Below are positions 7,059-43,752 of a stretch of 64,000 nt of DNA, in pieces. The stretch is from Eledone cirrhosa (lineage: Eukaryota). The stretch spans positions 14,074,001 to 14,138,000 of the forward strand of contig OZ024766.1 in the NCBI GenBank assembly GCA_964016885.1, in the 5' to 3' direction. Position numbers and translations under genes: made by a program. The notes beneath the pieces are model-generated. The model saw only the letters and a list, made by a program, of their open reading frames with translations. It did not search any database and was not told the DNA's origin. How positions within the stretch are numbered: the stretch's first letter is position 1; each line of letters opens with the position of its first letter.

Positions 7059-7365
7059 AATGTAGGAGGTGAGTTTTATTGTGGTACAATAAAGCAATGC
7101 AGATATCGGATAAGAAGCACTCTACAGTTTGTAGGACTGGAGTATACATAATATAAGATCAAAAGATGGTTAAAGGAGTTCCATGTATTTTATTATGCGC
7201 ATTTAAAACTGCACTATCCACAAGTGTTTTTTTAGCCTTCATATCATGTTCTCCTGTTTTATCTGATGAAAACACAAATATTATTGCATGATGATGTTTG
7301 TTTTTGAAATGCGCATAATAAAATACATGGAACTCCTTTAACCATCTTTTGATCTTATATTATAT
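7059..7365. mobile_element. Putative Penelope-like element end fragment with a 57-bp perfect inverted repeat (units 2,3,4,7,8,9)
   Basis: Arms 7148-7204 and 7307-7363 are exact reverse complements. The left part is homologous to the reverse complement of 45955-46072. Sits in (TA)n and contains a hammerhead motif. Confidence 0.6.
7255..7325 (+). ncRNA. Type I hammerhead ribozyme motif (Penelope-like minimal type), unit 2
   Basis: Stem I UGUUUUAU/AUAAAAUA; core CUGAUGA (7263-7269); stem II 7270-7305 of 16 positions (1 mismatch, 3 G-U, GCAU loop); GAAA (7306-7309); palindromic stem III AUGCGCAU; predicted cleavage AUA| after 7317. Confidence 0.8.
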
Positions 7366-7680
7366 TTACATATATATATATTTATATTTATATTTCTGGC
7401 TATTTCTGGCTGTCGATGGTCCTATTCAGGCCACTGGGATGACGTTGTTCAACGAGTGTATTTTTAAAAAAATGCAACAAGTGGTTCAAATCATTCGCAG
7501 ATTTGCATTTGCTGTGTAAACGCAGATGGTTATTTTTCTTCTCATTTGGTGAACATCCAAGAATTTAACTGCTGTGATTTACGGATTAATAGGTGAAATA
7601 TATTTCTTACTTAAAGAGCCAGGAACCCAACGGCTGAGCTCCGGCCAGAGATCAGCAGTTGGGGTCCTGACTCTTTTTCT

Positions 7681-7745
<65 letters not shown>

Positions 7746-8410
7746 ACGAAGGAAATGTGGTAAGGAACCAGGTGGACCATAACGCACCAAAGTACTCAAT
7801 ACTTGAGGTGGTAGAGTGGGTAATAGGAACCTTATTATATATTTATATATATATATATATAAATAATATATTAATAAATGGAAACTATATTTATAAAACC
7901 ATATTTATTTTATTATACATATTTCAAGGGCAACCAAGGCAAACTGTTGAGTGCTTTATATCAGTTATAAAAATGTTTAAGCTTATTGAATCCCAACAAA
8001 TTAAATATAACCTCTGCATATATATATATTTATATATATATATATAAATTTATATAATACAACATTAGAATTACTACTACATTTTACTTTCTATCTCTGT
8101 CTCTCACATCTCTTTCTCTCCCTCTATCTCCCTCTCTCGATATCCCTCTCTTTCTCTCACCCCCCTCTCTCTCTCTATCTCTCTCTATCTCTCCTCCTGT
8201 CTCTCCCATACACTTACCTAAGGTCATGTAATTTAACTGGGTGTGACTTTCTCAAAAGTTAATACAAAGACTTGCTTTCAACTGACAGAAACATAGCTAC
8301 AATGTTGCACACTCATATCATGTGTCTGTATGGCTGACTGCCTGAACTTCATACAGAAATAAAAAACCCCACACAACCAACATTCTGGGGTTGATAAAAT
8401 ATAATTGTTT

Positions 8411-9818
8411 CTAATTATATTGACTAATTATATTTACGAATAATATTGACTAATAATATTGACTAATTATATTGACTAATTATATTTACTAATAATATTG
8501 ACTAATTATATTGACTAATTATATTGACTAATTATATTTACTAATAATATTGACTAATAATATTGACTAATTATATTTACTAATAATATTGACTAATAAT
8601 ATTGACTTATTATATTGACTAATTATATTGACTAATTATATTGACTAATTATATTGACTAATTATATTTACTAATAATATTGACTAATTATATTTACTAA
8701 TAATATTGACTAATAATATTGACTAATTATATTGACTAATTATATTGACTAATTATATTGACTAATTATATTTACTAATAATATTGACTAATTATATTTA
8801 CTAATAATATTGACTAATTATATTGACTAATTATATTGACTAATTATATTGACTAATTATATTTACTAATAATATTGACTAATAATATTGACTAATTATA
8901 TTGACTAATTATATTTACTAATTATATTGACTAATTATATTGACTAATTATATTGACTAATTATATTGACTAATTATATTGACTAATTATATTTACTAAT
9001 AATAGTAACTAATTATATGAACTAATAATTATTTCTACATTAGCCACAAGGCCAGCAATTACCCAGTACATTACTGGTACTTTATTTTATCGACCCCGTA
9101 AGGATGAAAGGCAAAGTTAACCTCATTAACTAATTATATTGACTAATAATATTAACTAATTATATTGACTAATTATATTAACTAATAATATTAACTAATA
9201 TTATCACCTAATAATATTAACTAATAACATTCACTAATTATATTAACTAATAATATTAACTAATATTATCAACTAATAATATTCATTAATAATTTAAATA
9301 ATTTTTACATTAGGCACAAGGCCAGCAATTACCCCAGTGTATTACTGGTACTTTATTTTATCAACCCCGTAAGGATGAAGGGCAAAGTTAACCTCGGCGG
9401 GATTTGAATTAGTTAATATTATTCGGTGGATTGGCAGTATCGGTGGAGCGTCGGACGCCATGCTTTGATGCATAGAGTTACGGCCCTTAGTCAATATAAT
9501 TAGTAAATATTATTAGTTAATATTATTAGTTAATATAATTAGTTAATATTATTAGTTAATATAATTAGTTAATATTATTAGTTAATATTATTAGTTAATA
9601 TAATTAGTTAATATTATTAGTTAATATTATTAGTTAATATAATTAGTTAATATTATTAGTTAATATAATTAGTTAATATTATTAGTTAATATTATTAGTT
9701 AATATAATTAGTTAATATTATTAGTTAATATTATTAGTTAATATTATTAGTCAATATAATTAGTTAATATTATTAATTAATATAATTAGTTAATATTATT
9801 AGTCAATAATAACATTAA
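8411..9818. repeat. 13-bp satellite forward and reverse blocks with SINE fragments, unit 2
   Basis: Same 13-mer in both orientations. Confidence 0.9.
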
Positions 9819-10271
9819 TGGCAGTGGATTGGCAGTATCAGTGGAGGGTGGGACGCCATGCTTTGATGCATAGAGTTACGGCCCTTGCCATTCTGAGTTC
9901 AAATCCCACCGAGGTTAACTTTGCCTTTCATCCTTACGGGGTCGATAAAATAAAGTAGCAGTAATACACTGGGGTAATTGCTGGCCTTGTGCCTAACGTA
10001 GAAACAATTATTAACTAATATTTCTAACTAATAATATTGATTGTTGACTAGAAATTTAGAGATTATTTTAATGGTTTCTGATTTAGATGCAAGGCCAACA
10101 CATTTGGGGAAGGGGTGTTGATTGACCCCAGTGTGTTACTGGTACTTTATTTTATCAACCCAGTAAGGATGAAGGGCAAAGCTTACCTTGATGGGATTTG
10201 AACTCAGAACGTAAAGGGCCGTAACTGGGTTCAAATCCTACTGAAGTTATAGCTCTGGCTTTCATCCTAAC

Positions 10272-10491
10272 AGGGTTGATAAAGTAAAGTACCAGTAACG
10301 TACTGGGGTTGATAAAGTAAAGTACCAGTAACGTACTGGGGTTGATAAAGTAAAGTACCAGTAACGTACTGGGGTTGATAAAGTAAAGTACCAGTAACGA
10401 ACTGGGGTTGATAAAGTAAACTACCAGTAATGTACTGGGGTTAATAAAATAAAGTACCAGTAATGTACTGGGGTTGATAAAATAAAGTACC
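10272..10491. repeat. 33-bp minisatellite (~6.7 copies)
   Basis: Same unit. Confidence 0.95.
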
Positions 10492-10534
10492 TGGACTGGT
10501 GAGAGATAAAAGCTGAGATATGAAAATAACTAAC

Positions 10535-10672
10535 CGTTCTGACAACTGTTTCTTTCATAACCTGGAGCACATCTACCCCTTGAACAGATCCCTAATTCCA
10601 CATTACACCTGTTGTTATCTTCACAATGACACACCTGATCACAGTTGGCACCAAGTCTTCCACTACTGCACA
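10535..10672 (-). CDS. EGF-like internal exon, copy 3 (G41R, K46N)
   Basis: Same AG/GT sites; ends YERNSCQN; donor context changed to ACG|GTTAGT. Confidence 0.82.
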
Positions 10673-12387
10673 CTGTAACAGGAAAACATTGGTGTAGATC
10701 AGGGATTGGCAACTTCTTTGCCTCCATGGGCCGGACGAACGCCATAAAAGAATAATTATGGAAAATTACACAAGCTAAAATTTAATCTCGAGTGTTGACT
10801 ATACTATTCATTTCTCAAATCTTGAATTATATTCACAAATACCTCTGAATCCTGTGATTTCCCTCCTTGAAATGATGGAAAATGCACATAATTTTTATTT
10901 CAAAGTTGATGTTCCCACAACTGTAGCTTTTTTTCAAAGACAACAATATGGTTATACATTTCATTTACGAGCTGTGTTTTACCTTGAAGTTGTAAATTTA
11001 AGTTATTTAACCCTTTAGCACTTACATTATTCTATATTTACTATTGTAGTTTCACAGTAAACACTTTATCTTATATCGTTATCTCACATAATATTGAATC
11101 TATGAGATTTTGATATTATTTATTTTGAGAAGAATACCTTAACGTCAGTATGAGTGGCTAGTTACAGCCGGTTTGAACAGAAAAAAGTGAGAGATTTCTG
11201 GCCGGATATGGCCGGTTTAAATGCTAAAGAGTTAAACGAGTCACAATATCCTCAATAAATACCAAAGTTGTAACAGCAGGCCTTTTATTGTATTCGAAAG
11301 GAATAATACGTATTATTCTTTTATAATCTTTTATAATCTCTATACTTGTATTATTCTTTATCGAAAGGTTGTGAGTTCAATTCTCCGACCGGTTAATGTG
11401 TTGTTTCCTTGAGCAAGACACTTTATTTCAAATTGCTCCAGTTTACTCAGCTGTAGAAATGAGATGATAGGGACTGGAGTCCCTATCATTCCACTGTAAA
11501 GTGGTCGTAGAGGTGCCACGGCAAAAAATCACCCAGCACTCACTGTAAATGAGGTTGGTTTTAGGAAGGGCATCAAGCTGTAGAAATCAAGCCAGAATCA
11601 GTTCCTGTCCCACTCTTGCAAGCAGGGAAAAGGTGACGTAAAATGAAATGATTTCATAATTCAGGGGTTGATAAAATATAGTACCAGTGATATCCTGGAG
11701 TAGATTTAATAGAATAGCTTAACACACACTCACATATATATATATATCTACTAACCAAAGTATCGCGTGATCTGGTGCGTTATGGTCCACCTCGTTCCTT
11801 ACCATACTTCCTACCACACACACACACATATATAGATATATACTTATAAATATATACAGAATAAGGAGCAGGTATTACAATAACCTGGGGTTCAAAGGCC
11901 CTCACCTCTTCAACAAGCTGCCAAGGAATTTGAGAGATCTGCATGGTGTGGACGTGGATGTTTTCAAGGAACATCTCGACACCCTGTTACCAGGATCCTG
12001 GATGAGCCCACAGCATGGTTCGAAGGTAACCTAAGGGCAGCAACAACGAACCCCCTCTTTGCCAAATGGCCAACCAACACAGGTTGGAGAAAGAATGTGT
12101 AACAAGGGCATGCCCCAGCATGGCCTCAACTGGATCGCTGGAACACGTTAAAAGAGTAAAAGAGAATATATATATATATATATATACATATAATGTAGGA
12201 GGTGAGTTTTATTGTAGTACAATAAAGCAATGCAGATATCGGATAAGAAGCACTCTACAGTTTGTAGGACTGGAGTATACATAATATAAGATCAAAAGAT
12301 GGTTAAAGGAGTTCCATGTATTTTATTATGCGCATTTAAAACTGCACTATCCACAAGTGTTTTTTTAGCCTTCATATCATGTTCTCC

Positions 12388-12458
12388 TGTTTTATCTGAT
12401 GAAAACACAAATATTATTGCATGATGATGTTTGTTTTTGAAATGCGCATAATAAAATA
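12388..12458 (+). ncRNA. Type I hammerhead ribozyme motif, unit 3
   Basis: Identical to 7255-7325. Confidence 0.8.
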
Positions 12459-13013
12459 CATGGAACTCCTTTAACCATCTTTTGATCTTATATTATATAT
12501 ACATATATATATATTTATATTTATATTTCTGGCTATTTCTGGCTGTCGATGGTCCTATTCAGGCCACTGGGATGACGTTGTTCAACGAGTGTATTTTTAA
12601 AAAAATGCAACAAGTGGTTCAAATCATTCGCAGATTTGCATTTGCTGTGTAAACGCAGATGGTTATTTTTCTTCTCATTTGGTGAACATCCAAGAATTTA
12701 ACTGCTGTGATTTACGGATTAATAGGTGAAATATATTTCTTACTTAAAGAAATATATACAAAGGAGATTAATCATTTTAAAAGGTATCTATATTTGAAGT
12801 TCTAGTCAAGCTTTAATTAGTTACCTACCTAGCTATGTGTGCCTACATTCTTTACAAATTATTCCCTGTGATTGTTTCATGTATTTATTATATATATATA
12901 TATATATGTCAATCTATTTCTAGTTGATATGTAATGCTCGGATCTAATCTTTCAGCTTATTCTACGCATGGTGCATGTCTCTCAGACATGACAACCCTTA
13001 ATTTTAATTTCGG

Positions 13014-13079
<66 letters not shown>

Positions 13080-13116
13080 CTCAGAGTACTCAATACTTAG
13101 GGTAGAAGAGTGGGTA

Positions 13117-13190
13117 ATAGGAAAAGAGCCAGGAACCCAACAGCTGAGCTCTGGCCAGAGATCAGCAGTTGGGGTCCTGACTCTTTTCCT

Positions 13191-13192
<2 letters not shown>
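13117..13192. repeat. Imperfect palindrome at the end of a dispersed element (complete in units 3,4,9; truncated in the others)
   Basis: ataggaaaagagccaggaacccaacagctgagctctgg|ccagagatcagcagttggggtcctgactcttttcctat. Confidence 0.8.
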
Positions 13193-13251
<59 letters not shown>

Positions 13252-13390
13252 TAAATGGAAACTATATTTATAAAACCATATTTATTTTATTATACATATT
13301 TCAAGGCAACCAAGGCAAACTGTTGAGTGCTTTATATCAGTTATAAACATTTTTAAGCTTATTGAATCCCAACAAATTAAATATAACCTC

Positions 13391-13431
<41 letters not shown>

Positions 13432-13843
13432 CAACATTAGAATTACTACTACATTTTACTTTCTATCTCTCTGCCTCTTCCACTTTTAGTCTCCATTCTT
13501 CCCACTTTCTCTCTCTCCCTCTCTCTCTGTCTCTCTCACATCTTTCTCTCCCTCTATCTCCCTCTCTCGATATCCCTCTCTTTCTCTCTCTCTCTGTCTC
13601 TATCGCCCCCTCTCTCTCTATCTCTACTCCTGTCTCTCCCATACACTTACCTAAGGTCATGTAATTTAACTGGGTGTGACTTTCTCTAAAAGTTAATACA
13701 AAGACTTGCTTTCAACTGACAGAAACATAGCTACGATGTTGCACACTCATATCATGTGTCTGTATGGCTGACTGTCTGAACTTCATACAGAAATAAAAAA
13801 CCCACACAACCAACATTCTGGGGTTGATAAAATATAATTGTTT

Positions 13844-14859
13844 CTAATTATATTGACTAATTATATTTACTAATAATATTGAGTAATAATATTGCCTAAT
13901 TATATTGACTAATTATATTGACTAATTATATTGAGTAATAATATTGACTAATTATATTGACTAATTATATTGACTAATTATATTGACTAATTATATTGAC
14001 TTATTATATTGACTAATTATATTTACTCTGGGTAATTGCTGGCCTTGTGCCAAAAGTAGAAACAATTATATTTACTAATAGTATTGACTAATAATATTGA
14101 CTAATTATATTGACTAATTATATTGACTAATTATATTGACTAATTATATTGACTAATTATATTTACTAATAATAGTAACTAATTATATGAACTAATAATT
14201 GTTTCTACGTTAGGCACAAGGCCAGCAATTACCCAGTACATTACTGGTACTTTATTTTATCGACCCCGTAAGGATGAAAGGCAAAGTTAACCTCATTAAC
14301 TAATTATATTGACTAATTATATTAACTAATAATATTAACTAATATTATCACCTAATAATATTAACTAATAACATTCACTAATTATATTAACTAATAATAT
14401 TAACTAATATTATCAACTAATAATATTCACTAATAATTTAAATAATTTTTACATTAGGCACAAGGCCAGCAATTACCCCAGTGTATTACTGGTACTTTAT
14501 TTTATCAACCCCGTAAGGATGAAAGGCAAAGTTAACCTCGGCGGGATTTGAATTAGTTAATATTATTCGGTGGATTGTCAGTATCGGTGGAGCGTCGGAC
14601 GCCATGCTTTGATGCATAGAGTTATATAATTAGTAAATATTATTAGTTAATATTATTAGTTAATATAATTAGTTAATATTATTAGTTAATATAATTAGTT
14701 AATATTATTAGTTAATATTATTAGTTAATATTATTTAGTTAATATTATTTAGTTAATATTATTAGTTAATATTATTAGTCAATATAATTAGTTAATATTA
14801 TTAGTTAATATAATTAGTTAATATTATTAGTTAATATTATTAGTCAATAATAATATTAA
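13844..14859. repeat. 13-bp satellite blocks, unit 3
   Basis: Same 13-mer in both orientations. Confidence 0.9.
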
Positions 14860-15312
14860 TGGCAGTGGATTGGCAGTATCAGTGGAGGGTCGGACGCCAT
14901 GCTTTGATGCATAGAGTTACGGCCCTTGCCATTCTGAGTTCAAATCCCACCGAGGTTAACTTTGCCTTTCATCCTTACGTGGTCGATAAAATAAAGTAGC
15001 AGTAATACACTGGGGTAATTGCTGGCCTTGTGCCTAACGTAGAAACAATTATTAACTAATATTACTAACTAATAATATTGATTGTTGACTAGAAATTTAG
15101 AGATTATTTTAATGGTTTCTGATTTAGATGCAAGGCCAACACATTTGGGGAAGGGGTGTTGATTGACCCCAGTGTGTTACTGGTACTTTATTTTATCAAC
15201 CCAGTAAGGATGAAAGGCAAAGCTTACCTTGATGGGATTTGAACTCAGAACGTAAAGGGCCGTAACTGGGTTCAAATCCTACTGAAGTTATAGCTCTGGC
15301 TTTCATCCTAAC

Positions 15313-15664
15313 AGGGTTGATAAAGTAAAGTACCAGTAACGTACTGGGGTTGTTGAAGTAAAGTACCTGTAACGTTCTTGGGTTGATAAAGTAAGGTACC
15401 AGTAATGTACTGGGGTTGTTAAAGTAAAGTACCAGTAATGTACTGGGTTTGATAAAGTAAAGTATCAGTAACGTACTGGGGTTGATAAGGTGAAGTAACA
15501 GTAACGTACTGGGGTTGATAAAGTAAAGTACCAGTAATGTACGGGGGTTGATAAAGTAAAGTACCAGTAACGTACTGGGGTTGATAAAGTAAAGTACCAG
15601 TAACGTACTGGGGTTGATAAAGTAAAGTACCAGTAACGTACTGGGGTTGATAAAATAAAGTACC
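15313..15664. repeat. 33-bp minisatellite (~10.7 copies)
   Basis: Same unit. Confidence 0.95.
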
Positions 15665-15707
15665 TGGACTGGTGAGAGATAAAAGCTGAGATATGAAAAT
15701 AACTAAC

Positions 15708-15845
15708 CTTTCTGACAACTGTTTCCTTCATAACCTGGAGCACATCTACCCCTTGAACAGATCCCTAATTCCACATTACACCTGTTGTTATCTTCACAAT
15801 GACACACCTGATCACAGTTGGCACCAAGTCTTCCACTACTGCACA
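15708..15845 (-). CDS. EGF-like internal exon, copy 4 (consensus)
   Basis: Same splice sites and module. Confidence 0.85.
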
Positions 15846-17561
15846 CTGTAACAGGAAAACATTGGTGTAGATCAGGGATTGGCAACTTCTTTGCCTCCAC
15901 GGGCCGGACGAACGCCATAAAAGAATAATTATGGAAAATTACACAAGCTAAAATTTAATCTCGAGTGTTGACTATACTATTCATTTCTCAAATCTTGAAT
16001 TATATTCACAAATACCTCTGAATCCTGTGATTTCCCTCCTTGAAATGATGGAAAATGCACATAATTTTTATTTCAAAGTTGATGTTCCCACAACTGTAGC
16101 TTTTTTTCAAAGGCAACAATATGGTTATACATTTCATTTACGAGCTGAGTTTTACCTTGACGTTGTAAATTTAAGTTATTTAACCCTTTAGCACTTACAT
16201 TACTCTATATTTACTATTGTAATGTCACAGTAAACACTTTATCTTATATAGTTATCTCACATAATATTGAATCTATGAGATTTTGATATTATTTATTTTG
16301 AGAAGAATACCTTAACGTCAGTATGAGTGGCTAGTTACAGCCGGTTTGAACAGAAAAAAGTGAGAGATTTCTGGCCGGATATGGCCGGTTTAAATGCTAA
16401 AGGGTTAAACGAGTCACAATATCCTCAATAAATACCAAAGTTGTAAAAGCAGGCCTTTTATTGTATTCGAAAGGAATAATATGTATTATTCTTTTATAAT
16501 CTTTTATAATCTCTATAATTGTATTATTCTTTATCGAAAGGTTGTGAGTTCAATTCTCAGACCGGGTAATGTGTTGTTTCCTTGAGCAAGACACTTTATT
16601 TCAAATTGCTCCAGTTTACTCAGCTGTAAAAATGAGATGATAGGGACTGGGGTCCCTATCATTCCACTGTAAAGTGGTCGTAGAGGTGCCACGGCAAAAA
16701 ATCACCCAGCACTCACTGTAAATGAGGTTGGTTTTAGGAAGGGCATCAAGCTGTAGAAATCAAGCCAGAATCAGTTCCTGTCCCACTCTTGCAAGCAGGG
16801 AAAAGGGGACGTAAAATGAAATGTTTCATAATTCAGGGGTTGATAAAATATAGTACCAGTGATATCCTGGGGTAGATTTAATAGAATAGCTTAACACACA
16901 CTCACATATATATATATATCTACTAACCAAAGTATCGCGTGATCTGGTGCGTTATGGTCCACCTCGTTCCTTACCATACTTCCTACCACACACACACACA
17001 CACATATATAGATATATACTTATAAATATATACAGAATAAGGAACAAGTATTACAATAACCTGGGGTTCAAGGGCCCTCACCTCTTCAACAAGCTGCCAA
17101 GGAATTTGAGAGATCTGCACGGTGTGGACGTGGATGTTTTCAAGGAACATCTCGACACCCTGTTATCAGGATCCTGGATGAGCCCACAGCATGGTTCGAA
17201 GGTAACCTAAGGGCAGCAACAATGAACCCCCTCTTTGCCAAATGGCCAACCAACACAGGTTGGAGAAAGAATGTGTAACAAGGGCATGCCCCAGCATGGC
17301 CTCAACTGGATCGCTGGAACACGTTAAAAGAGTAAAAGAGAATATATATATATATATATACATATAATGTAGGAGGTGAGTTTTATTGTAGTACAATAAA
17401 GCAATGCAGATATCGGATAAGAAGCACTCTACAGTTTGTAGGACTGGAGTATACATAATATAAGATCAAAAGATGGTTAAAGGAGTTCCATGTATTTTAT
17501 TATGCGCATTTAAAACTGCACTATCCACAAGTGTTTTTTTAGCCTTCATATCATGTTCTCC

Positions 17562-17632
17562 TGTTTTATCTGATGAAAACACAAATATTATTGCATGATG
17601 ATGTTTGTTTTTGAAATGCGCATAATAAAATA
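17562..17632 (+). ncRNA. Type I hammerhead ribozyme motif, unit 4
   Basis: Identical to 7255-7325. Confidence 0.8.
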
Positions 17633-18210
17633 CATGGAACTCCTTTAACCATCTTTTGATCTTATATTATATATACATATATATATATTTATATTTATAT
17701 TTCTGGCTATTTCTGGCTGTCGATGGTCCTATTCAGGCCACTGGGATGACGTTGTTCAACGAGTGTATTTTAAAAAAAATGCAACACGTGGTTCATATCA
17801 TTCGCAGATTTGCATTTGCTGTGTAAACGCAGATGGTTATTTTTCTTCTCATTTGGTGAACATCCAAGAATTTAACTGCTGTGATTTACGGATTAATAGG
17901 TGAAATATATTTCTTACTTAAAGAAATATATACAAAGGAGATTAATCATTTTAAAAGGTATCTATATTTGAAGTTCTAGTCAAGCTTTAATTAGTTACCT
18001 ACCTAGCTATGTGTGCCTACATTCTTTACAAATTATTCCCTGTGATTGTTTCATGTATTTATTATATATATATATATATATGTCAATCTATTTCTAGTTG
18101 ATATGTAATGCTCGGATCTAATCTTTCAGCTTATTCTACGCATGGTGCATGTCTCTCAGACATGACAACCCTTAATTTTAATTTTGGATATATATATATA
18201 TACATATATG

Positions 18211-18306
<96 letters not shown>

Positions 18307-18414
18307 AGAGTACTCAATACTTAGGGTAGAAGAGTGGGTAATAGGAAAAGAGCCAGGAACCCAACAGCTGAGCTCTGGCCAGAGATCAGCAGTTGGGGTC
18401 CTGACTCTTTTCCT

Positions 18415-18477
<63 letters not shown>

Positions 18478-18620
18478 TAAATGGAAACTATATTTATAAA
18501 ACCATATTTATTTTATTATACATATTTCAAGGGCAACCAAGGCAAACTGTTGAGTGCTTTATATCAGTTATAAAAATGTTTAAGCTTATTGAATCCCAAC
18601 AAATTAAATGTAACCTCTGC

Positions 18621-18657
<37 letters not shown>

Positions 18658-19011
18658 AATATATATAATACAACATTAGAATTACTACTACATTTTACTT
18701 TCTATCTCTGTCTCTCACATCTCTTTCTCTCCCTCTATCTCCCTCTCTCGATATCCCTCTCTTTCTCTCACCCCCCTCTCTCTCTCTATCTCTCCTCCTG
18801 TCTCTCCCATACACTTACCTAAGGTCATGTAATTTAACTGGGTGTGACTTTCTCTAAAAGTTAATACAAAGACTTGCTTTCAACTGACAGAAACATAGCT
18901 ACGATGTTGCACACTCATATCATGTGTCTGTATGGCTGACTGCCTGAACTTCATACAGAAATAAAAAACCCACACAACCAACATTCTGGGGTTGATAAAA
19001 TATAATTGTTT

Positions 19012-23397: not shown

Positions 23398-23428
<31 letters not shown>

Positions 23429-23727
23429 TTATATTTATATTTCTGGCTATTTCTGGCTGTCGATGGTCCTATTCAGGCCACTGGGATGACGTTGTTCAAC
23501 GAGTGTATTTTTAAAAAAATGCAACAAGTGGTTCATATCATTCGCAGATTTGCATTTGCTGTGTAAACGCAGATGGTTATTTTTCTTCTCATTTGGTGAA
23601 CATCCAAGAATTTAACTGCTGTGATTTACGGATTAATAGGTGAAATATATTTCTTACTTAAAGAGCCAGGAACCCAACGGCTGAGCTCCGGCCAGAGATC
23701 AGCAGTTGGGGTCCTGACTCTTTTCCT

Positions 23728-28280: not shown

Positions 28281-28313
<33 letters not shown>

Positions 28314-28612
28314 TTATATTTATATTTCTGGCTATTTCTGGCTGTCGATGGTCCTATTCAGGCCACTGGGATGACGTTGTTCAACGAGTGTATTTTTAAA
28401 AAAATGCAACAAGTGGTTCATATCATTCGCAGATTTGCATTTGCTGTGTAAACGCAGATGGTTATTTTTCTTCTCATTTGGTGAACATCCAAGAATTTAA
28501 CTGCTGTGATTTACGGATTAATAGGTGAAATATATTTCTTACTTAAAGAGCCAGGAACCCAACGGCTGAGCTCCGGCCAGAGATCAGCAGTTGGGGTCCT
28601 GACTCTTTTCCT

Positions 28613-31355: not shown

Positions 31356-33067
31356 CTGTAACAGGAAAACATTGGTGTAGATCAGGGATTGCCAACTTCT
31401 TTGCCTCCATGGGCCGGACGAACGCCATAAAAGAATAATTATGGAAAATTACACAAGCTAAAATTTTTATCTCGAGTGTTGACTATACTATTCATTTCTC
31501 AAATCTTGAATTATATTCACAAATACCTCTGAATCCTGTGATTTCCCTCCTTGAAATGATGGAAAATGCACATAATTTTTATTTCAAAGTTGATGTTCCC
31601 ACAACTGTAGCTTTTTTTCAAAGGCAACAATATGGTTATACATTTCATTTACGAGCTGAGTTTTAACTTGAAGTTGTAAATTTAAGTTATTTAACCCTTT
31701 AGCACTTACATTACTCTATATTTACTATTGTAATGTCACAGTAAACACTTTATCTTATATAGTTATCTCACATAATATTGAATCTATGAGATTTTGATAA
31801 TCTTTATTTTGAGAAGAATACCTTAACGTCAGTATGAGTGGCTAGTTACAGCCGGTTTGAACAGAAAAAAGTGAGAGATTTCTGGCCGGATATGGCCGGT
31901 TTAAATGGTAAAGGGTTAAACGAGTCACAATATCCTCAATAAATACCAAAGTTGTAACAGCAGGCCTTTTATTGTATTCGAAAGGAATAATACGTATTAT
32001 TCTTTTATAATCTTTTATTATCTCTATAATTGTATTATTCTTTATCGAAAGGTTGTGAGTTCAATTCTCAGACCGGTTAATGTGTTGTTTCCTTGAGCAA
32101 GACACTTTATTTCAAATTGCTCCAGTTTACTCAGCTGTAGAAATGAGATGATAGGGACTGGGGTCCCTATCATTCCACTGTAAAGTGGTCCTAGAGGTGC
32201 CACGGCAAAAAATCACCCAGCACTCACTGTAAATGAGGTTGGTTTTAGGAAGGGCATCAAGCTGTAGAAATCAAGCCAGAATCAGTTCCTGTCCCACTCT
32301 TGCAAGCAGGGAAAAGGGGACGTAAAATGAAATGATTTCATAATTCAGGGGTTGATAAAATATAGTACCAGTGATATCCTGGGGTAGATTTAATAGAATA
32401 GCTTAACTCGCACTCACATATATATATATCTACTAACCAAAGTATCGCGTGATCTGGTGCGTTATGGTCCACCTCGTTCCTTACCATACTTCCTACCACA
32501 CACACACACATATATAGATATATACTTATAAATATATACAGAATAAGGAGCAGGTATTACAATAACCTGGGGTTCAAGGGCCCTCACCTCTTCAACAAGC
32601 TGCCAAGGAATTTGAGAGATCTGCATGGTGTGGACGTGGATGTTTTCAAGGAACATCTCGACACCCTGTTACCAGGATCCTGGATGAGCCCACAGCATGG
32701 TTCGAAGGTAACCTAAGGGCAGCAACAACGAACCCCCTCTTTGCCGAATGGCCAACCAACACAGGTTGGAGAAAGAATGTGTAACAAGAGCATGCCCCAG
32801 CATGGCCTCAACTGGATCGCTGGAACACGTTAAAAGAGAAAAAGAGAATATATATATATATATATACATATAATGTAGGACGTGAGTTTTATTGTGGTAC
32901 AATAAAGCAATGCAGATATCGGATAAGAAGCACTCTACAGTTTGTAGGACTGGAGTATACATAATATAAGATCAAAAGATGGTTAAAGGAGTTCCATGTA
33001 TTTTATTATGCGCATTTAAAACTGCACTATCCACAAGTGTTTTTTTAGCCTTCATATCATGTTCTCC

Positions 33068-33138
33068 TGTTTTATCTGATGAAAACACAAATATTATTGC
33101 ATGATGATGTTTGTTTTTGAAATGCGCATAATAAAATA
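33068..33138 (+). ncRNA. Type I hammerhead ribozyme motif, unit 7
   Basis: Identical to 7255-7325. Confidence 0.8.
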
Positions 33139-33493
33139 CATGGAACTCCTTTAACCATCTTTTGATCTTATATTATATTTACATATATATATATTTATAT
33201 TTATATTTCTGGCTATTTCTGGCTGTCGATGGTCCTATTCAGGCCACTGGGATGACGTTGTTCAACGAGTGTATTTTTAAAAAAATGCAACAAGTGGTTC
33301 AAATCATTCGCAGATTTGCATTTGCTGTGTAAACGCAGATGGTTATTTTTCTTCTCATTTGGTGAACATCCAAGAATTTAACTGCTGTGATTTACGGATT
33401 AATAGGTGAAATATATTTCTTACTTAAAGAGCCAGGAACCCAACGGCTGAGCTCCGGCCAGAGATCAGCAGTTGGGGTCCTGACTCTTTTCCT

Positions 33494-33578
<85 letters not shown>

Positions 33579-34243
33579 ACGAAGGAAATGTGGTAAGGAA
33601 CCAGGTGGACCATAACGCACCAAAGTACTCAATACTTGAGGTGGTAGAGTGGGTAATAGGAACCTTATTATATATTTATATATATATATATATAAATAAT
33701 ATATTAATAAATGGAAACTATATTTATAAAACCATATTTATTTTATTATACATATTTCAAGGGCAACCAAGGCAAACTGTTGAGTGCTTTATATCAGTTA
33801 TAAAAATGTTTAAGCTTATTGAATCCCAACAAATTAAATATAACCTCTGCATATATATATATTTATATATATATATATAAATTTATATAATACAACATTA
33901 GAATTACTACTACATTTTACTTTCTATCTCTGTCTCTCACATCTCTTTCTCTCCCTCTATCTCCCTCTCTCGATATCCCTCTCTTTCTCTCACCCCCCTC
34001 TCTCTCTCTATCTCTCTCTATCTCTCCTCCTGTCTCTCCCATACACTTACCTAAGGTCATGTAATTTAACTGGGTGTGACTTTCTCAAAAGTTAATACAA
34101 AGACTTGCTTTCAACTGACAGAAACATAGCTACAATGTTGCACACTCATATCATGTGTCTGTATGGCTGACTGCCTGAACTTCATACAGAAATAAAAAAC
34201 CCCACACAACCAACATTCTGGGGTTGATAAAATATAATTGTTT

Positions 34244-35664
34244 CTAATTATATTGACTAATTATATTTACGAATAATATTGACTAATTATATTGACTAAT
34301 TATATTGACTAATAATATTGACTAATAATATTGACTAATTATATTGACTAATTATATTGACTAATTATATTTACTAATAATATTGACTAATAATATTGAC
34401 TAATTATATTTACTAATAATATTGACTAATAATATTGACTTATTATATTGACTAATTATATTGACTAATTATATTGACTAATTATATTTACTAATAATAT
34501 TGACTAATTATATTTACTAATAATATTGACTAATAATATTGACTAATTATATTGACTAATTATATTGACTAATTATATTGACTAATTATATTGACTAATT
34601 ATATTTACTAATAATATTGACTAATTATATTTACTAATAATATTGACTAATTATATTGACTAATTATATTGACTAATTATATTGACTAATTATATTTACT
34701 AATAATATTGACTAATAATATTGACTAATTATATTGACTAATTATATTTACTAATTATATTGACTAATTATATTGACTATTTATATTGACTAATTATATT
34801 GACTAATTATATTGACTAATTATATTTACTAATAATAGTAACTAATTATATGAACTAATAATTATTTCTACATTAGCCACAAGGCCAGCAATTACCCAGT
34901 ACATTACTGGTACTTTATTTTATCGACCCCGTAAGGATGAAAGGCAAAGTTAACCTCATTAACTAATTATATTGACTAATAATATTAACTAATTATATTG
35001 ACTAATTATATTAACTAATAATATTAACTAATATTATCACCTAATAATATTAACTAATAACATTCACTAATTATATTAACTAATAATATTAACTAATATT
35101 ATCAACTAATAATATTCATTAATAATTTAAATAATTTTTACATTAGGCACAAGGCCAGCAATTACCCCAGTGTATTACTGGTACTTTATTTTATCAACCC
35201 CGTAAGGATGAAGGGCAAAGTTAACCTCGGCGGGATTTGAATTAGTTAATATTATTCGGTGGATTGGCAGTATCGGTGGAGCGTCGGACGCCATGCTTTG
35301 ATGCATAGAGTTACGGCCCTTAGTCAATATAATTAGTAAATATTATTAGTTAATATTATTAGTTAATATAATTAGTTAATATTATTAGTTAATATAATTA
35401 GTTAATATTATTAGTTAATATTATTAGTTAATATAATTAGTTAATATTATTAGTTAATATTATTAGTTAATATAATTAGTTAATATAATTAGTTAATATT
35501 ATTAGTTAATATAATTAGTTAATATTATTAGTTAATATTATTAGTTAATATAATTAGTTAATATTATTAGTTAATATTATTAGTTAATATTATTAGTCAA
35601 TATAATTAGTTAATATTATTAATTAATATAATTAGTTAATATTATTAGTCAATAATAACATTAA
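34244..35664. repeat. 13-bp satellite blocks, unit 7
   Basis: Same 13-mer in both orientations. Confidence 0.9.
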
Positions 35665-36117
35665 TGGCAGTGGATTGGCAGTATCAGTGGAGGGTGGGAC
35701 GCCATGCTTTGATGCATAGAGTTACGGCCCTTGCCATTCTGAGTTCAAATCCCACCGAGGTTAACTTTGCCTTTCATCCTTACGGGGTCGATAAAATAAA
35801 GTAGCAGTAATACACTGGGGTAATTGCTGGCCTTGTGCCTAACGTAGAAACAATTATTAACTAATATTACTAACTAATAATATTGATTGTTGACTAGAAA
35901 TTTAGAGATTATTTTAATGGTTTCTGATTTAGATGCAAGGCCAACACATTTGGGGAAGGGGTGTTGATTGACCCCAGTGTGTTACTGGTACTTTATTTTA
36001 TCAACCCAGTAAGGATGAAGGGCAAAGCTTACCTTGATGGGATTTGAACTCAGAACGTAAAGGGCCGTAAGTGGGTTCAAATCCTACTGAAGTTATAGCT
36101 CTGGCTTTCATCCTAAC

Positions 36118-36337
36118 AGGGTTGATAAAGTAAAGTACCAGTAACGTACTGGGGTTGATAAAGTAAAGTACCAGTAACGTACTGGGGTTGATAAAGTAAA
36201 GTACCAGTAACGTACTGGGGTTGATAAAGTAAAGTACCAGTAATGAACTGGGGTTGATAAAGTAAACTACCAGTAATGTACTGGGGTTAATAAAATAAAG
36301 TACCAGTAATGTACTGGGGTTGATAAAATAAAGTACC
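36118..36337. repeat. 33-bp minisatellite (~6.7 copies)
   Basis: Same unit. Confidence 0.95.
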
Positions 36338-36380
36338 TGGACTGGTGAGAGATAAAAGCTGAGATATGAAAATAACTAAC

Positions 36381-36518
36381 CTTTCTGACAACTGTTTCTT
36401 TCATAACCTGGAGCACATCTACCCCTTGAACAGATCCCTAATTCCACATTACACCTGTTGTTATCTTCACAATGACACACCTGATCACAGTTGGCACCAA
36501 GTCTTCCACTACTGCACA
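36381..36518 (-). CDS. EGF-like internal exon, copy 8 (G41R)
   Basis: Same splice sites; ends YERNSCQK. Confidence 0.85.
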
Positions 36519-38233
36519 CTGTAACAGGAAAACATTGGTGTAGATCAGGGATTGGCAACTTCTTTGCCTCCATGGGCCGGACGAACGCCATAAAAGAATA
36601 ATTATGGAAAATTACACAAGCTAAAATTTAATCTCGAGTGTTGACTATACTATTCATTTCTCAAATCTTGAATTATATTCACAAATACCTCTGAATCCTG
36701 TGATTTCCCTCCTTGAAATGATGGAAAATGCACATAATTTTTATTTCAAAGTTGATGTTCCCACAACTGTAGCTTTTTTTCAAAGACAACAATATGGTTA
36801 TACATTTCATTTACGAGCTGTGTTTTACCTTGAAGTTGTAAATTTAAGTTATTTAACCCTTTAGCACTTACATTATTCTATATTTACTATTGTAGTTTCA
36901 CAGTAAACACTTTATCTTATATCGTTATCTCACATAATATTGAATCTATGAGATTTTGATATTATTTATTTTGAGAAGAATACCTTAACGTCAGTATGAG
37001 TGGCTAGTTACAGCCGGTTTGAACAGAAAAAAGTGAGAGATTTCTGGCCGGATATGGCCGGTTTAAATGCTAAAGGGTTAAACGAGTCACAATATCCTCA
37101 ATAAATACCAAAGTTGTAACAGCAGGCCTTTTATTGTATTCGAAAGGAATAATACGTATTATTCTTTTATAATCTTTTATAATCTCTATAATTGTATTAT
37201 TCTTTATCGAAAGGTTGTGAGTTCAATTCTCCGACCGGTTAATGTGTTGTTTCCTTGAGCAAGACACTTTATTTCAAATTGCTCCAGTTTACTCAGCTGT
37301 AGAAATGAGATGATAGGGACTGGAGTCCCTATCATTCCACTGTAAAGTGGTCGTAGAGGTGCCACGGCAAAAAATCACCCAGCACTCACTGTAAATGAGG
37401 TTGGTTTTAGGAAGGGCATCAAGCTGTAGAAATCAAGCCAGAATCAGTTCCTGTCCCACTCTTGCAAGCAGGGAAAAGGTGACGTAAAATGAAATGATTT
37501 CATAATTCAGGGGTTGATAAAATATAGTACCAGTGATATCCTGGAGTAGATTTAATAGAATAGCTTAACACACACTCACATATATATATATATCTACTAA
37601 CCAAAGTATCGCGTGATCTGGTGCGTTATGGTCCACCTCGTTCCTTACCATACTTCCTACCACACACACACATATATAGATATATACTTATAAATATATA
37701 CAGAATAAGGAGCAGGTATTACAATAACCTGGGGTTCAAAGGCCCTCACCTCTTCAACAAGCTGCCAAGGAATTTGAGAGATCTGCATGGTGTGGACGTG
37801 GATGTTTTCAAGGAACATCTCGACACCCTGTTACCAGGATCCTGGATGAGCCCACAGCATGGTTCGAAGGTAACCTAAGGGCAGCAACAACGAACCCCCT
37901 CTTTGCCAAATGGCCAACCAACACAGGTTGGAGAAAGAATGTGTAACAAGGGCATGCCCCAGCATGGCCTCAACTGGATCGCTGGAACACGTTAAAAGAG
38001 TAAAAGAGAATATATATATATATATATATATACATATAATGTAGGAGGTGAGTTTTATTGTAGTACAATAAAGCAATGCAGATATCGGATAAGAAGCACT
38101 CTACAGTTTGTAGGACTGGAGTATACATAATATAAGATCAAAAGATGGTTAAAGGAGTTCCATGTATTTTATTATGCGCATTTAAAACTGCACTATCCAC
38201 AAGTGTTTTTTTAGCCTTCATATCATGTTCTCC

Positions 38234-38304
38234 TGTTTTATCTGATGAAAACACAAATATTATTGCATGATGATGTTTGTTTTTGAAATGCGCATAATAA
38301 AATA
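38234..38304 (+). ncRNA. Type I hammerhead ribozyme motif, unit 8
   Basis: Identical to 7255-7325. Confidence 0.8.
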
Positions 38305-38659
38305 CATGGAACTCCTTTAACCATCTTTTGATCTTATATTATATATACATATATATATATTTATATTTATATTTCTGGCTATTTCTGGCTGTCGATGGTC
38401 CTATTCAGGCCACTGGGATGACGTTGTTCAACGAGTGTATTTTTAAAAAAATGCAACAAGTGGTTCAAATCATTCGCAGATTTGCATTTGCTGTGTAAAC
38501 GCAGATGGTTATTTTTCTTCTCATTTGGTGAACATCCAAGAATTTAACTGCTGTGATTTACGGATTAATAGGTGAAATATATTTCTTACTTAAAGAGCCA
38601 GGAACCCAACGGCTGAGCTCCGGCCAGAGATCAGCAGTTGGGGTCCTGACTCTTTTCCT

Positions 38660-38708
<49 letters not shown>

Positions 38709-39373
38709 ACGAAGGAAATGTGGTAAGGAACCAGGTGGACCATAACGCACCAAAGTACTCAATACTTGAGGTAGTAGAGTGGGTAATAGGAACCTTATTA
38801 TATATTTATATATATATATATATAAATAATATATTAATAAATGGAAACTATATTTATAAAACCATATTTATTTTATTATACATATTTCAAGGGCAACCAA
38901 GGCAAACTGTTGAGTGCTTTATATCAGTTATAAAAATGTTTAAGCTTATTGAATCCCAACAAATTAAATATAACCTCTGCATATATATATATTTATATAT
39001 ATATATATAAATATATATAATACAACATTAGAATTACTACTACATTTTACTTTCTATCTCTGTCTCTCACATCTCTTTCTCTCCCTCTATCTCCCTCTCT
39101 CGATATCCCTCTCTTTCTCTCACCCCCCTCTCTCTCTCTCTCTCTCTCTATCTCTCCTCCTGTCTCTCCCATACACTTACCTAAGGTCATGTAATTTAAC
39201 TGGGTGTGACTTTCTCAAAAGTTAATACAAAGACTTGCTTTCAACTGACAGAAACATAGCTACGATGTTGCACACTCATATCATGTGTCTGTATGGCTGA
39301 CTGCCTGAACTTCATACAGAAATAAAATACCCCACACAACCAACATTCTGGGGTTGATAAAATATAATTGTTT

Positions 39374-40703
39374 CTAATTATATTGACTAATTATATTTAC
39401 GAATAATATTGACTAATAATATTGACTAATTATATTGACTAATTATATTTACTAATAATATTGACTAATAATATTGACTAATTATATTGACTAATTATAT
39501 TGACTAATTATATTTACTAATAATATTGACTAATAATATTGACTAATTATATTTACTAATAATATTGACTAATAATATTGACTAATTATATTGACTAATT
39601 ATATTGACTAATCATATTGACTAATTATATTGACTAATTATATTGACTAATTATATTTACTAATAATATTGACTAATTATATTTACTAATAATATTGACT
39701 AATTATATTGACTAATTATATTGACTAATTATATTGACTAATTATATTTACTAATAATATTGACTAATAATATTGACTAATTATATTGACTAATTATATT
39801 TACTAATTATATTGACTAATTATATTGACTAATTATATTGACTAATTATATTGACTAATTATATTGACTAATTATATTTACTAATAATAGTAACTAATTA
39901 TATGAACTAATAATTATTTCTACATTAGCCACAAGGCCAGCAATTACCCAGTACATTACTGGTACTTTATTTTATCGACCCCGTAAGGATGAAAGGCAAA
40001 GTTAACCTCATTAACTAATTATATTGACTAATAATATTAACTAATTATATTGACTAATTATATTAACTAATAATATTAACTAATATTATCACCTAATAAT
40101 ATTAACTAATAACATTCACTAATTATATTAACTAATAATATTAACTAATATTATCAACTAATAATATTCACTAATAATTTAAATAATTTTTACATTAGGC
40201 ACAAGGCCAGCAATTACCCCAGTGTATTACTGGTACTTTATTTTATCAACCCCGTAAGGATGAAGGGCAAAGTTAACCTCGGCGGGATTTGAATTAGTTA
40301 ATATTATTCGGTGGATTGGCAGTATCGGTGGAGCGTCGGACGCCATGCTTTGATGCATAGAGTTACGGCCCTTAGTCAATATAATTAGTAAATATTATTA
40401 GTTAATATAATTAGTTAATATAATTAGTTAATATAATTAGTTAATATAATTAGTTAATATTATTAGTTAATATTATTAGTTAATATAATTAGTTAATATT
40501 ATTAGTTAATATTATTAGTTAATATAATTAGTTAATATTATTAGTTAATATAATTAGTTAATATTATTAGTTAATATTATTAGTTAATATAATTAGTTAA
40601 TATTATTAGTTAATATTATTAGTTAATATTATTAGTCAATATAATTAGTTAATATTATTAATTAATATAATTAGTTAATATTATTAGTCAATAATAACAT
40701 TAA
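39374..40703. repeat. 13-bp satellite blocks, unit 8
   Basis: Same 13-mer in both orientations. Confidence 0.9.
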
Positions 40704-41138
40704 TGGCAGTGGATTGGCAGTATCAGTGGAGGGTCGGACGCCATGCTTTGATGCATAGAGTTACGGCCCTTGCCATTCTGAGTTCAAATCCCACCGAGGT
40801 TAACTTTGCCTTTCATCCTTACGGGGTCGATAAAATAAAGTAGCAGTAATTCACTGGGGTAATTGCTGGCCTTGTGCCTAACGTAGAAACAATTATTAAC
40901 TAATATTTCTAACTAATAATATTTAGAGATTATTTTAATGGTTTCTGATTTAGATGCAAGGCCAACACATTTGGGGAAGGGGTGTTGATTGACCCCAGTG
41001 TGTTACTGGTACTTTATTTTATCAACCCAGTAAGGATGAAAGGCAAAGCTTACCTTGATGGGATTTGAACTCAGAACGTAAAGGGCCGTAACTGGGTTCA
41101 AATCCTACTGAAGTTATAGCTCTGGCTTTCATCCTAAC

Positions 41139-41788
41139 AGGGTTGATAAAGTAAAGTACCAGTAACGTACTGGGGTTGATGAAGTAAAGTACCTGTAACG
41201 TTCTTGGGTTGATAAAGTAAGGTACCAGTAATGTACTGGGGGTTGATAAAGTAAAGTACCAGTAATGTACTGGGTTTGATAAAGTAAAGTATCAGTAACG
41301 TACTGGGGTTGATAAAGTAAAGTACCAGTAATGTACGGGGGTTGATAAAGTAAAGTACCAGTAACGTACTGGGGTTGATAAAGTAAAGTACCAGTAATGT
41401 ACTGGGGTTGATAAAGTAAAGTACCAGTAACGTACTGGGGTTGATAAAGTAAAGTACCAGTAATGTACTGGGGTTGATAAAATAAAGTACCAGTAATGTA
41501 CTGGAGTTGATAAAATAAAGTACTAGTAACGTACTGGGGTTGATAAAGTAAAGTACCAGGAATGTACTGGGATTGATAAAGTAAAGTACCAGTAATGTAC
41601 TGGGGTTGATAAAATAAAGTACCAGTAACGTACTGGGGTTGATAAAGTAAAGTACCAGTAACGTACTGGGGTTGACAAAATAAAGTACCAGTAATGTACT
41701 GGGATTGATAAAATAAAGTACCAGTAATGTACTGGGATTGATAAAATAAAGTACCAGTAATGTACTGGGGTTGATAAAATAAAGTACC
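41139..41788. repeat. 33-bp minisatellite (~19.7 copies)
   Basis: Same unit. Confidence 0.95.
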
Positions 41789-41831
41789 TGGACTGGTGAG
41801 AGATAAAAGCTGAGATATGAAAATAACTAAC

Positions 41832-41969
41832 CTTTCTGACAACTGTTTCCTTCATAACCTGGAGCACATCTACCCCTTGAACAGATCCCTAATTCCACAT
41901 TACACCTGTTGTTATCTTCACAATGACACACCTGATCACAGTTGGCACCAAGTCTTCCACTACTGCACA
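41832..41969 (-). CDS. EGF-like internal exon, copy 9 (consensus; most 5' copy in transcription order)
   Basis: Same splice sites and module. Confidence 0.85.
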
Positions 41970-43681
41970 CTGTAACAGGAAAACATTGGTGTAGATCAGG
42001 GATTGCCAACTTCTTTGCCTCCATGGGCCGGACGAACGCCATAAAAGAATAATTATGGAAAATTACACAAGCTAAAATTTTTATCTCGAGTGTCGACTAT
42101 ACTATTCATTTCTCAAATCTTGAATTATATTCACAAATACCTCTGAATCCTGTGATTTCCCTCCTTGAAATGATGGAAAATGCACATAATTTTTATTTCA
42201 AAGTTGATGTTCCCACAACTGTAGCTTTTTTTCAAAGGCAACAATATGGTTATACATTTCATTTACGAGCTGAGTTTTACCTTGAAGTTGTAAATTTAAG
42301 TTATTTAACCCTTTAGCACTTACATTACTCTATATTTACTATTGTAATGTCACAGTAAACACTTTATCTTATATAGTTATCTCACATAATATTGAATCTA
42401 TGAGATTTTGATAATATTTATTTTGAGAAGAATACCTTAACGTCAGTATGAGTGGCTAGTTACAGCCGGTTTGAACAGAAAAAAGTGAGAGATTTCTGGC
42501 CGGATATGGCCGGTTTAAATGCTAAAGGGTTAAACGAGTCACAATATCCTCAATAAATACCAAAGTTGTAACAGCAGGCCTTTTATTGTATTCGAAAGGA
42601 ATAATACGTATTATTCTTTTATAATCTTTTATAATCTCTATAATTGTATTATTCTTTATCGAAAGGTTGTGAGTTCAATTCTCCGACCGGTTAATGTGTT
42701 GTTTCCTTGAGCAAGACACTTTATTTCAAATTGCTCCAGTTTACTCAGCTGTAGAAATGAGATGATAGGGACTGGAGTCCTTATCATTCCACTGTAAAGT
42801 GGTCGTAGAGGTGCCACGGCAAAAAATCACCCAGCACTCACTGTAAATGAGGTTGGTTTTAGGAAGGGCATCAAGCTGTAGAAATCAAGCCAGAATCAGT
42901 TCCTGTCCCACTCTTGCAAGCAGGGAAAAGGGGACGTAAAATGAAATGATTTCATAATTCAGGGGTTGATAAAATATAGTACCAGTGATATCCTGGGGTT
43001 GATTTAATAGAATAGCTTAACACACACTCACATATATATATATATCTACTAACCAAAGTATCGCGTGATCTGGTGCGTTATGGTCCACTTCGTTCCTTAC
43101 CATACTTCCTACCACACACACACATATATAGATATATACTTATAAATATATACAGAATAAGGAGCAGGTATTACAATAACCTGGGGTTCAAGGGCCCTCA
43201 CCTCTTCAACAAGCTGCCAAGGAATTTGAGAGATCTGCATGGTGTGGACGTGGATGTTTTCAAGGAACATCTCGACACCCTGTTACCAGGATCCTGGATG
43301 AGCCCACAGCATGGTTCGAAGGTAACCTAAGGGCAGCAACAACGAACCCCCTCTTTGCCAAATGGCCAACCAACACAGGTTGGAGAAAGAATGTGTAACA
43401 AGGGCATGCCCCAGCATGGCCTCAACTGGATCGCTGGAACACGTTAAAAGAGTAAAAGAGAATATATATATATATATATACATATAATGTAGGAGGTGAG
43501 TTTTATTGTAGTACAATAAAGCAATGCAGATATCGGATAAGAAGCACTCTACAGTTTGTAGGACTGGAGTATACATAATATAAGATCAAAAGATGGTTAA
43601 AGGAGTTCCATGTATTTTATTATGCGAATTTAAAACTGCACTATCCACAAGTGTTTTTTTAGCCTTCATATCATGTTCTCC

Positions 43682-43752
43682 TGTTTTATCTGATGAAAAC
43701 ACAAATATTATTGCATGATGATGTTTGTTTTTGAAATGCGCATAATAAAATA
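43682..43752 (+). ncRNA. Type I hammerhead ribozyme motif, unit 9
   Basis: Identical to 7255-7325. Confidence 0.8.

Follow-up and report, generated by a model that had tools for sequence, protein, structure and literature searches.

Among the Penelope-like elements (PLEs), the Hydra clade is marked by a DKT motif, a CxCx5C linker, CxxC and CxH motifs around a conserved E and N, and the absence of GxKF/Y and Cx2-5CxxC (PMC8557442, section 11). A supplementary file of that work lists (TA)n targets, hammerheads in the pseudo-long terminal repeat (pLTR) and an octopus member among the Hydra-clade families. The hammerhead of an anole PLE is described, in the accessible part of PMC11167929, as cleaving only with the element's protein and as dispensable for insertion in vitro. 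PLEs have also been reported in an octopus, in a paper whose accessible text mentions neither hammerheads nor Hydra (PMC13282606). The window considered here is a 64,000-nt stretch of Eledone cirrhosa DNA (assembly GCA_964016885.1, contig OZ024766.1, positions 14,074,001 to 14,138,000, forward strand), in which six hammerheads lie within a tandem array of EGF-like exons. With a probability of roughly 0.88, they are copies of one ~303-bp fold-back PLE fragment that was duplicated passively, each with an inverted arm that is predicted to block it; the fallback offered by the original prediction, a passive transposon relic, is thus the part of it that fits best. Neither this element family nor an EGF-exon array of this kind was found described in a search of the partly accessible literature.

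The hammerhead motif is real, with a predicted self-cleaving fold. Copy 1 lies at 7255-7325 on the + strand, and identical copies on the same strand occupy 12388-12458, 17562-17632, 33068-33138, 38234-38304 and 43682-43752; the claim of six core-intact ribozymes stood, with no difference among the six sites over the 91 nt compared. The type I layout originally described also agrees with a pair-by-pair check. Stem I (7255-7262/7318-7325) has 8 bp including one G-U, and is followed by CUGAUGA (7263-7269; the CTGATGA core starts at 7263 and at five equivalent positions). Stem II (7270-7285/7290-7305) spans 16 positions, with one C.U mismatch, three U-G pairs and a 4-nt loop, and leads into GAA-A (7306-7309). 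The palindromic stem III segment, AUGCGCAU (7309-7316), forms a stem that closes a GCGC loop, and the AUA triplet (7315-7317) places the predicted cut after 7317. Core CUGAnGA, GAAA and NUH are thereby arranged around three helices with helix I open, as in type I hammerheads. The 10.1-11.1 pair is A-U here and not the usual G-C; a G10.1-C11.1 pair is common in hammerheads, not obligatory. Elsewhere in the window, 49583-49632 (+) holds a possible minimal hammerhead (CUGAUGA, short stem II, GAAA, ACGU palindrome), which does not appear in the best fold, and CUGAUGA also occurs at 51972, 55333 and 58601 (+) and at 53309 (-), without a clear GAAA partner.

Taken in isolation, the fold is not unusually stable (z -0.44). 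For the 71-mer alone the predicted probabilities are ~0.4-0.7 for stem I, ~0.5-1.0 for stem II and 0.002 for a monomeric stem III. The isolated active dimer is predicted at -32.7 kcal/mol, against -21.2 kcal/mol for two monomers in their best folds, which bears out the expectation of a PLE-type hammerhead with a palindromic stem III that would need a dimer. The Rfam check suggested at the outset gave no match at the gathering threshold across the 64 kb, and none of the eight matches obtained down to E 10 in 7000-7500 belongs to a hammerhead model. Nevertheless, the motif is not a product of chance, because the 3.0-Gb genome contains 9,855 exact matches (4,955 plus 4,900) to a 30-mer from the ribozyme, against 0 for the reversed control, and because stem II is retained in sister subfamilies despite A/G-opposite-U and C/U-opposite-G changes; one sister-subfamily pattern gives 3,631 matches.

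Many of these matches are arranged as head-to-head pairs. Twenty loci were taken from the match list for inspection, and in the fetched loci the motif sits 3' of a long open reading frame (ORF). L035:2192-4591 is an 800-aa ORF starting at a Met, upstream of the same pLTR, and its product carries YRDD (357), DKT, CxCx5C, a GIY-YIG-type IYEC...TYFG (679), CxxC and CxH; the ORF of L052 has 775 aa. The L035 ORF has 18 homologues at 29-39% identity. A low-complexity insert of ~70 aa before the CxCx5C linker is missing from six homologues, and L035 has RWT at a column where four of the six aligned homologues have RWK. A motif scan of the L035 protein found neither GxKF/Y nor Cx2-5CxxC, and a Pfam search with this ORF and the EGF-like exon returned nothing meaningful. 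Partial tandems of the form pLTR-ORF-pLTR occur in L037, where the pLTRs are 3.3 kb apart, L041 and L052; the unit measures about 3.3-3.7 kb, including a ~1-kb 3' untranslated region (UTR), the tail is ~85 nt long, and the tail-to-leader junction has 195 exact matches. The element is a young, high-copy family with long intact ORFs.

One ORF therefore encodes a reverse transcriptase (RT) with a GIY-YIG endonuclease at the C-terminal end, the arrangement of endonuclease-positive (EN+) PLEs. DKT, CxCx5C, CxxC and CxH around a conserved E and N, and the (TA)n target are all present, and by these motifs, not by a tree, the element likely belongs to the Hydra clade. The Naiad clade is ruled out, since Naiads have an N-terminal endonuclease and no canonical hammerheads. 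Several relatives were seen in passing: a more distantly related hammerhead family that shares stem I but differs in stem II (L033:1468-1539), RT fragments of other Penelope-like lineages beside fetched copies (L031:6358-6975 on the - strand and L053:2175-3919) and, in the window itself, an older relic of the same element's tail (45958-46072, +, 82% identity) that ends at a (CA)n/(TA)n tract.

Within the array, each hammerhead lies inside an insertion of ~303 bp that interrupts a (TA)n tract. Copy 1 spans about 7061 to 7363; copy 2 (12194-12496) has the same junctions, and comparison of anchors places the others at 17368-17670, 32874-33176, 38040-38342 and 43488-43790. The inverted arm of copy 1 (7061-7204, -) consists of the element's 3' tail and the pLTR's 3' half as far as stem III; it includes neither CUGAUGA nor stem II and, when placed on L035, maps to the equivalent of native 7302-7450. 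The forward arm (7201-7363, +) is a pLTR fragment with the hammerhead and ends at the family's tail-less 3' end, and the two are joined via about 4 nt of microhomology (7201-7204). Judged by its sequence, the insertion is a piece of a Penelope-like retrotransposon end that is inverted and 5'-truncated. Among the arms of 60 other loci, 58 of 115 have the tail and 57 are tail-less, in agreement with the scheme of a tail at one end and an inverted 5'-truncated copy described in the sections available of PMC8557442. One target-primed insertion into the (TA)n tract would have left a tailed inverted arm and a tail-less forward arm, the usual arrangement for this family. The same arm junction occurs in L032 and L034 with the variants of another subfamily (94-96% identity), and the junction therefore likely recurs independently.

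Filled and empty units were scored by anchors on both sides of the site, which occur nine times in the window. The anchors are 385-389 nt apart in six units and 68-70 nt apart, with only (TA)n between them, in three (empty target sites at 2442-2483, 23399-23440 and 28282-28325). A TA-rich surplus of ~14 nt fits a target duplication, blurred by the microsatellite. Ribozyme-bearing units thus make up 6/9 in the window, with 3/9 empty, and 39 of the 62 sites in three clusters across the contig, the other 23 being empty; more filled and empty units are found on C19. The idea that hammerheads were amplified inside the EGF-exon array holds for the six copies there, but these are copies of one duplicated insertion and not a feature of the array, a third of the window's units being without it. 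Both the three empty units and the inverted copy of the ribozyme's own 3' half upstream of each ribozyme had been overlooked.

The variation among copies is in line with such an origin. Insertion copies in the window differ by 0-3 nt in 310, and variable sites are scarcer in the insertion than in the adjoining intron (7/299 against 85/1471 sites, p=0.014); the insertion would be younger than the unit, hence the identity of the six copies. In a tree of flanks from 61 of the 62 units (one has no flank), the filled or empty state changes seven times, at least five of the changes being forced by well-supported branches. Together with the identical junctions, these changes point to one insertion spread by duplication of the unit and shuffled by recombination, an origin that the six copies would share; amplification with unequal crossover or conversion would yield filled and empty units with identical junctions. 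Across the 39 filled units, 1/71 sites vary in the ribozyme and 6/228 in the rest of the insertion (Fisher p=1), and the sole ribozyme variant, present in three copies, breaks a stem II pair. By this low-power comparison, the ribozyme appears not to be specially conserved in the array.

The inverted arm also bears on what the ribozyme could do. Positions 7148-7204, upstream of the ribozyme, are complementary to 7307-7363 and form a perfect inverted arm of ~57 bp, whose pairing partners include GAAA, stem III and the cut site. The whole insertion is predicted to fold into a hairpin of ~60 bp on the + strand (-116.6 kcal/mol, z -11.8), and the - strand to form the same hairpin at -113.6 kcal/mol. 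The calculated cost of imposing stems I and II is 27.2 kcal/mol in the whole insertion, 2.3 kcal/mol in the forward arm alone and 2.1-7.1 kcal/mol in five native contexts of L035. In RNA coming from upstream the inverted arm is transcribed first, and capture of the ribozyme's 3' half is therefore predicted; in simulations of a growing chain with a fixed upstream 5' end, the probability of stem I is 0.0 at every length tested, and that of the antisense pairing ~1.0 once 7325 has been made. RNA of either strand would accordingly be folded up, and on the + strand the hairpin would take GAAA, stem III and the cut site, leaving read-through RNA uncut. The AUGCGCAU of the inverted arm was considered as an intramolecular substrate and rejected by inspection, the register of stem I being off by one. 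The common two-ribozyme fold-back, as in L045:1079-1490, is predicted to be blocked more strongly, with a penalty of 101.9 kcal/mol.

The original prediction had instead supposed that hammerheads acting as dimers cut + strand read-through RNA one after another, into ~5-kb or multi-unit antisense RNAs that circularize like retrozymes. The ribozymes are indeed antisense to the exons, which lie on the - strand. The cores are intact in 39/39 array copies, the modeled active dimer, taken in isolation, lies at most 1 kcal/mol from the best dimer fold, and there are documented cases of retrozyme circles produced from type I hammerheads in tandem (PMC7229834, accessible part). A circle, however, needs two cuts, and the full inverted arm precedes every downstream copy (27 kcal/mol), with a predicted stem I probability of 0.000; moreover, the motif is missing from 23 of the 62 units. 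Only RNA starting a few bases from the junction would escape, with downstream copies still blocked, so that two cuts and a circle are unlikely. As far as the accessible texts go, the described non-LTR retrozyme repeats measure 150-450 bp and not 5 kb (PMC7229834), cleavage by related minimal PLE hammerheads is weak even when they are dimers (PMC4209133), and the anole ribozyme depends on the element's protein (PMC11167929). Cutting into unit-length RNAs is thus not borne out by the models, unit-length antisense circles are unlikely, and the scenario as a whole is very improbable. The same low standing is given to a version in which a ribozyme locked in its hairpin has been domesticated by the array, the 60-bp lock being opened in some cells by editing, by a helicase or by the element's protein, and successive cuts releasing circularizing 5-kb units that regulate multi-EGF genes or feed reverse-transcribed units back into arrays. 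If true, such regulated 5-kb circles would amount to a retrozyme adopted by the host and tenfold larger than those known; the evidence speaks against it.

A more modest alternative, improbable as well but slightly less so, places an internal promoter in the forward arm. RNA of the + strand would start near 7200, and its first hammerhead would cut once together with other pLTR RNA, trimming ~120 nt from an antisense read-through transcript, with no circles and no selected role. PLE promoters have been reported in the pLTR (PMC8557442 and PMC11167929, parts available), thousands of partner RNAs are potentially at hand, and the inverted arm would be left out of the transcript. A start only 7 nt farther upstream, at 7194, is nonetheless predicted to cost 8.0 kcal/mol already, with the palindrome paired, and one at 7185 costs 19.4 kcal/mol; the array copy has in addition lost the native 7194-7200 segment, where short copies of the element most frequently begin.

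That boundary is sharp. Of 113 arms, 31 begin at the equivalent of 7192-7196, 22 of them at 7194, which is 61 nt upstream of stem I and typical of the ~430-bp fold-back copies. Short fold-backs with this start are L043, L047, L054, L157, L162, L174, L179, L181 and L192, and in such copies the arms are often separated by a few additional bases. The boundary would be explained either by a discrete short template of the pLTR or by a preferred nick, and no choice is made between them. A capped start site is not supported, the base before the break being C in 12 cases, A in 10, G in 10 and T in 6, and none of the 29 ORF-leader copies starting there. As for a footprint of cleavage, 49 copies have their 5' boundary at the cut site against 52 at a control position 12 nt downstream, a check that is blind to cleavage followed by ligation, which leaves no scar. 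No arm (0/113, at loci selected for containing the 30-mer) starts at 7310-7325, and among the 29 ORF-leader copies one starts exactly at 7318 and two at 7322-7323.

In the retrotransposon lineage, the ribozyme likely processes multimeric element RNA as a dimer. An alignment of 16 of the 26 distinct ribozyme variants was examined, the searches having required the core; among the ten variants omitted are the more distant family and some copies that carry deletions or have lost pairs. Among the 16, 95.7% of 398 cells are paired, against 37-62% with slid partners, and compatible variation is seen on one side in 8 of the 25 pairs and on both sides in 1. The 10.1-11.1 pair is G-U in five of these rows and G-C in two. 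These figures support, without proving, a fold kept by selection in the retrotransposon lineage and not in the array.

Several points weigh against this account. Covariation is no better than in shuffles (193/500 score as high; one pair in 25 shows two-sided change), and the support for the fold therefore rests on the one-sided compatible changes. The block is an equilibrium prediction, and RNA that starts in the forward arm is predicted to escape it (2.3-4.2 kcal/mol from 7201 or 7205). The likely place in the Hydra clade is a matter of motifs, among which RWK is replaced by RWT. The conservation test within the array has low power, with seven variable sites in all, and since 63% of the units are filled, there may be a bias favoring filled units.

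The array that hosts the insertions occupies 1-45127 of the window, in nine units of ~4.4-6.1 kb, and extends to G000:C27:13,981,990, its cluster counting 27 units. The three clusters of the contig (G000:C27 12.92-12.99, 13.98-14.12 and 14.50-14.60 Mb) together hold 62 near-identical units; one cluster is inverted, and a higher-order periodicity is present. Each unit contains one EGF-like exon of 138 nt (5404-5541, -; 46 codons, 8 Cys, AG acceptor and GT donor), with the other copies starting near 807, 10535, 15708, 21764, 26646, 31218, 36381 and 41832. Minisatellites of 33 bp (281-763 and equivalents) and 13 bp (3370-3932 and equivalents) are found in each unit, and their copy number sets its length. 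The exon derives from a dispersed multi-EGF gene family, with loci on C19 (35.40, 37.13, 38.67 and 39.68-39.71 Mb), C20, C16, C22 and C23; at C27 15.14-15.19 Mb it belongs to a set of 19 EGF-like exons, and at four C19 loci two or three tandem copies are followed by the next EGF exon. Around the window's cluster, no further EGF-like exon lies within 38 kb downstream or 40 kb upstream, and the last exon of the cluster is truncated. Exon variants comprise 10 non-synonymous and 2 synonymous changes, close to the ratio of sites, with no stops and two Cys losses, a neutral-like pattern. The cluster may be an orphan array.

This setting speaks to a last reading, in which the hairpin matters and not the ribozyme: a 60-bp intronic duplex in the sense pre-mRNA of gene copies with these units would be a site of RNA editing or one that modulates splicing, or a DNA cruciform would promote recombination. 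The predicted - strand hairpin fits, as do the filled units upstream of the next EGF exon at the four C19 loci. Such fold-backs, however, number thousands genome-wide, and the window's cluster has no other EGF exon within the distances given above, ends in a truncated exon and shows the 10:2 ratio of changes, leaving this the least probable of the readings considered. Passive duplication of a self-blocked PLE fragment is therefore preferred.

Beyond the array, the window contains C2H2 zinc-finger array ORFs of 182 and 281 aa in duplicated blocks (53458-54003 and 60785-61627, both -) and a strongly strand-skewed 89-bp tandem repeat of 35 copies (55309-58395). Broken ORF pieces of a non-LTR retrotransposon, which we take by family name to be RTE-like, lie at 46303-48120 and 50009-51088.

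The array ribozyme, as one of about ten thousand retrotransposon ribozyme copies multiplied by tandem duplication, has little significance in itself. The predicted self-silencing of fold-back ribozymes may explain why so many of them are tolerated in and near genes in either orientation, and a young, high-copy family whose long ORFs are intact and whose short copies share a sharp 5' boundary is well suited to studying the role of PLE hammerheads in transposition.

By most testable features, all read from sequence, the motif can be identified as a Hydra-type PLE's pLTR hammerhead, its activity being predicted. With the Hydra-clade elements (PMC8557442 as far as accessible; including Hydra-1_Obim and Penelope-13_HM), the parent element shares the single ORF with RT and C-terminal GIY-YIG, the DKT, CxCx5C, CxxC and CxH motifs, the (TA)n target and a pLTR hammerhead with a short self-complementary stem III; an inverted 5'-truncated copy attached upstream is also found in Penelope-13_HM (file S1). 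It differs in having RWT or RWI instead of RWK, a unit of about 3.3-3.7 kb with its ~1-kb 3' UTR where described families are mostly <3 kb, a 16-position stem II where the Hydra rows of file S2 show 3-7 bp, the A-U pair at 10.1-11.1 and about 10,000 exact motif copies. Its tail of ~85 nt exceeds the 30-40 bp described for EN+ PLEs.

The minimal PLE hammerheads (Cervera and De la Pena, 2014; PMC4209133, accessible part) are also of type I, with a long helix II, a palindromic helix III/loop 3 and a dimer requirement, and they too exist as thousands of mostly truncated copies, with opposite-strand pairs 100-700 bp apart. By contrast, helix II is here double the described 7-8 bp, this subfamily lacks the G10.1-C11.1 pair (its sisters have G-U and G-C) and the inverted partner is without the core. 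The animal non-LTR retrozymes (PMC7229834 and bioRxiv 10.64898/2026.07.22.740005, available parts) likewise carry a type I hammerhead derived from the pLTR of a PLE that recurs in tandem on the same strand. Their units, however, measure 150-450 bp, each contains a hammerhead, and they are expressed as monomer RNAs, both linear and circular, whereas the array repeats ~5 kb of host intron and exon, 37% of its units are without the ribozyme, a block is predicted for every copy, and the array bears the marks of duplication at the DNA level.

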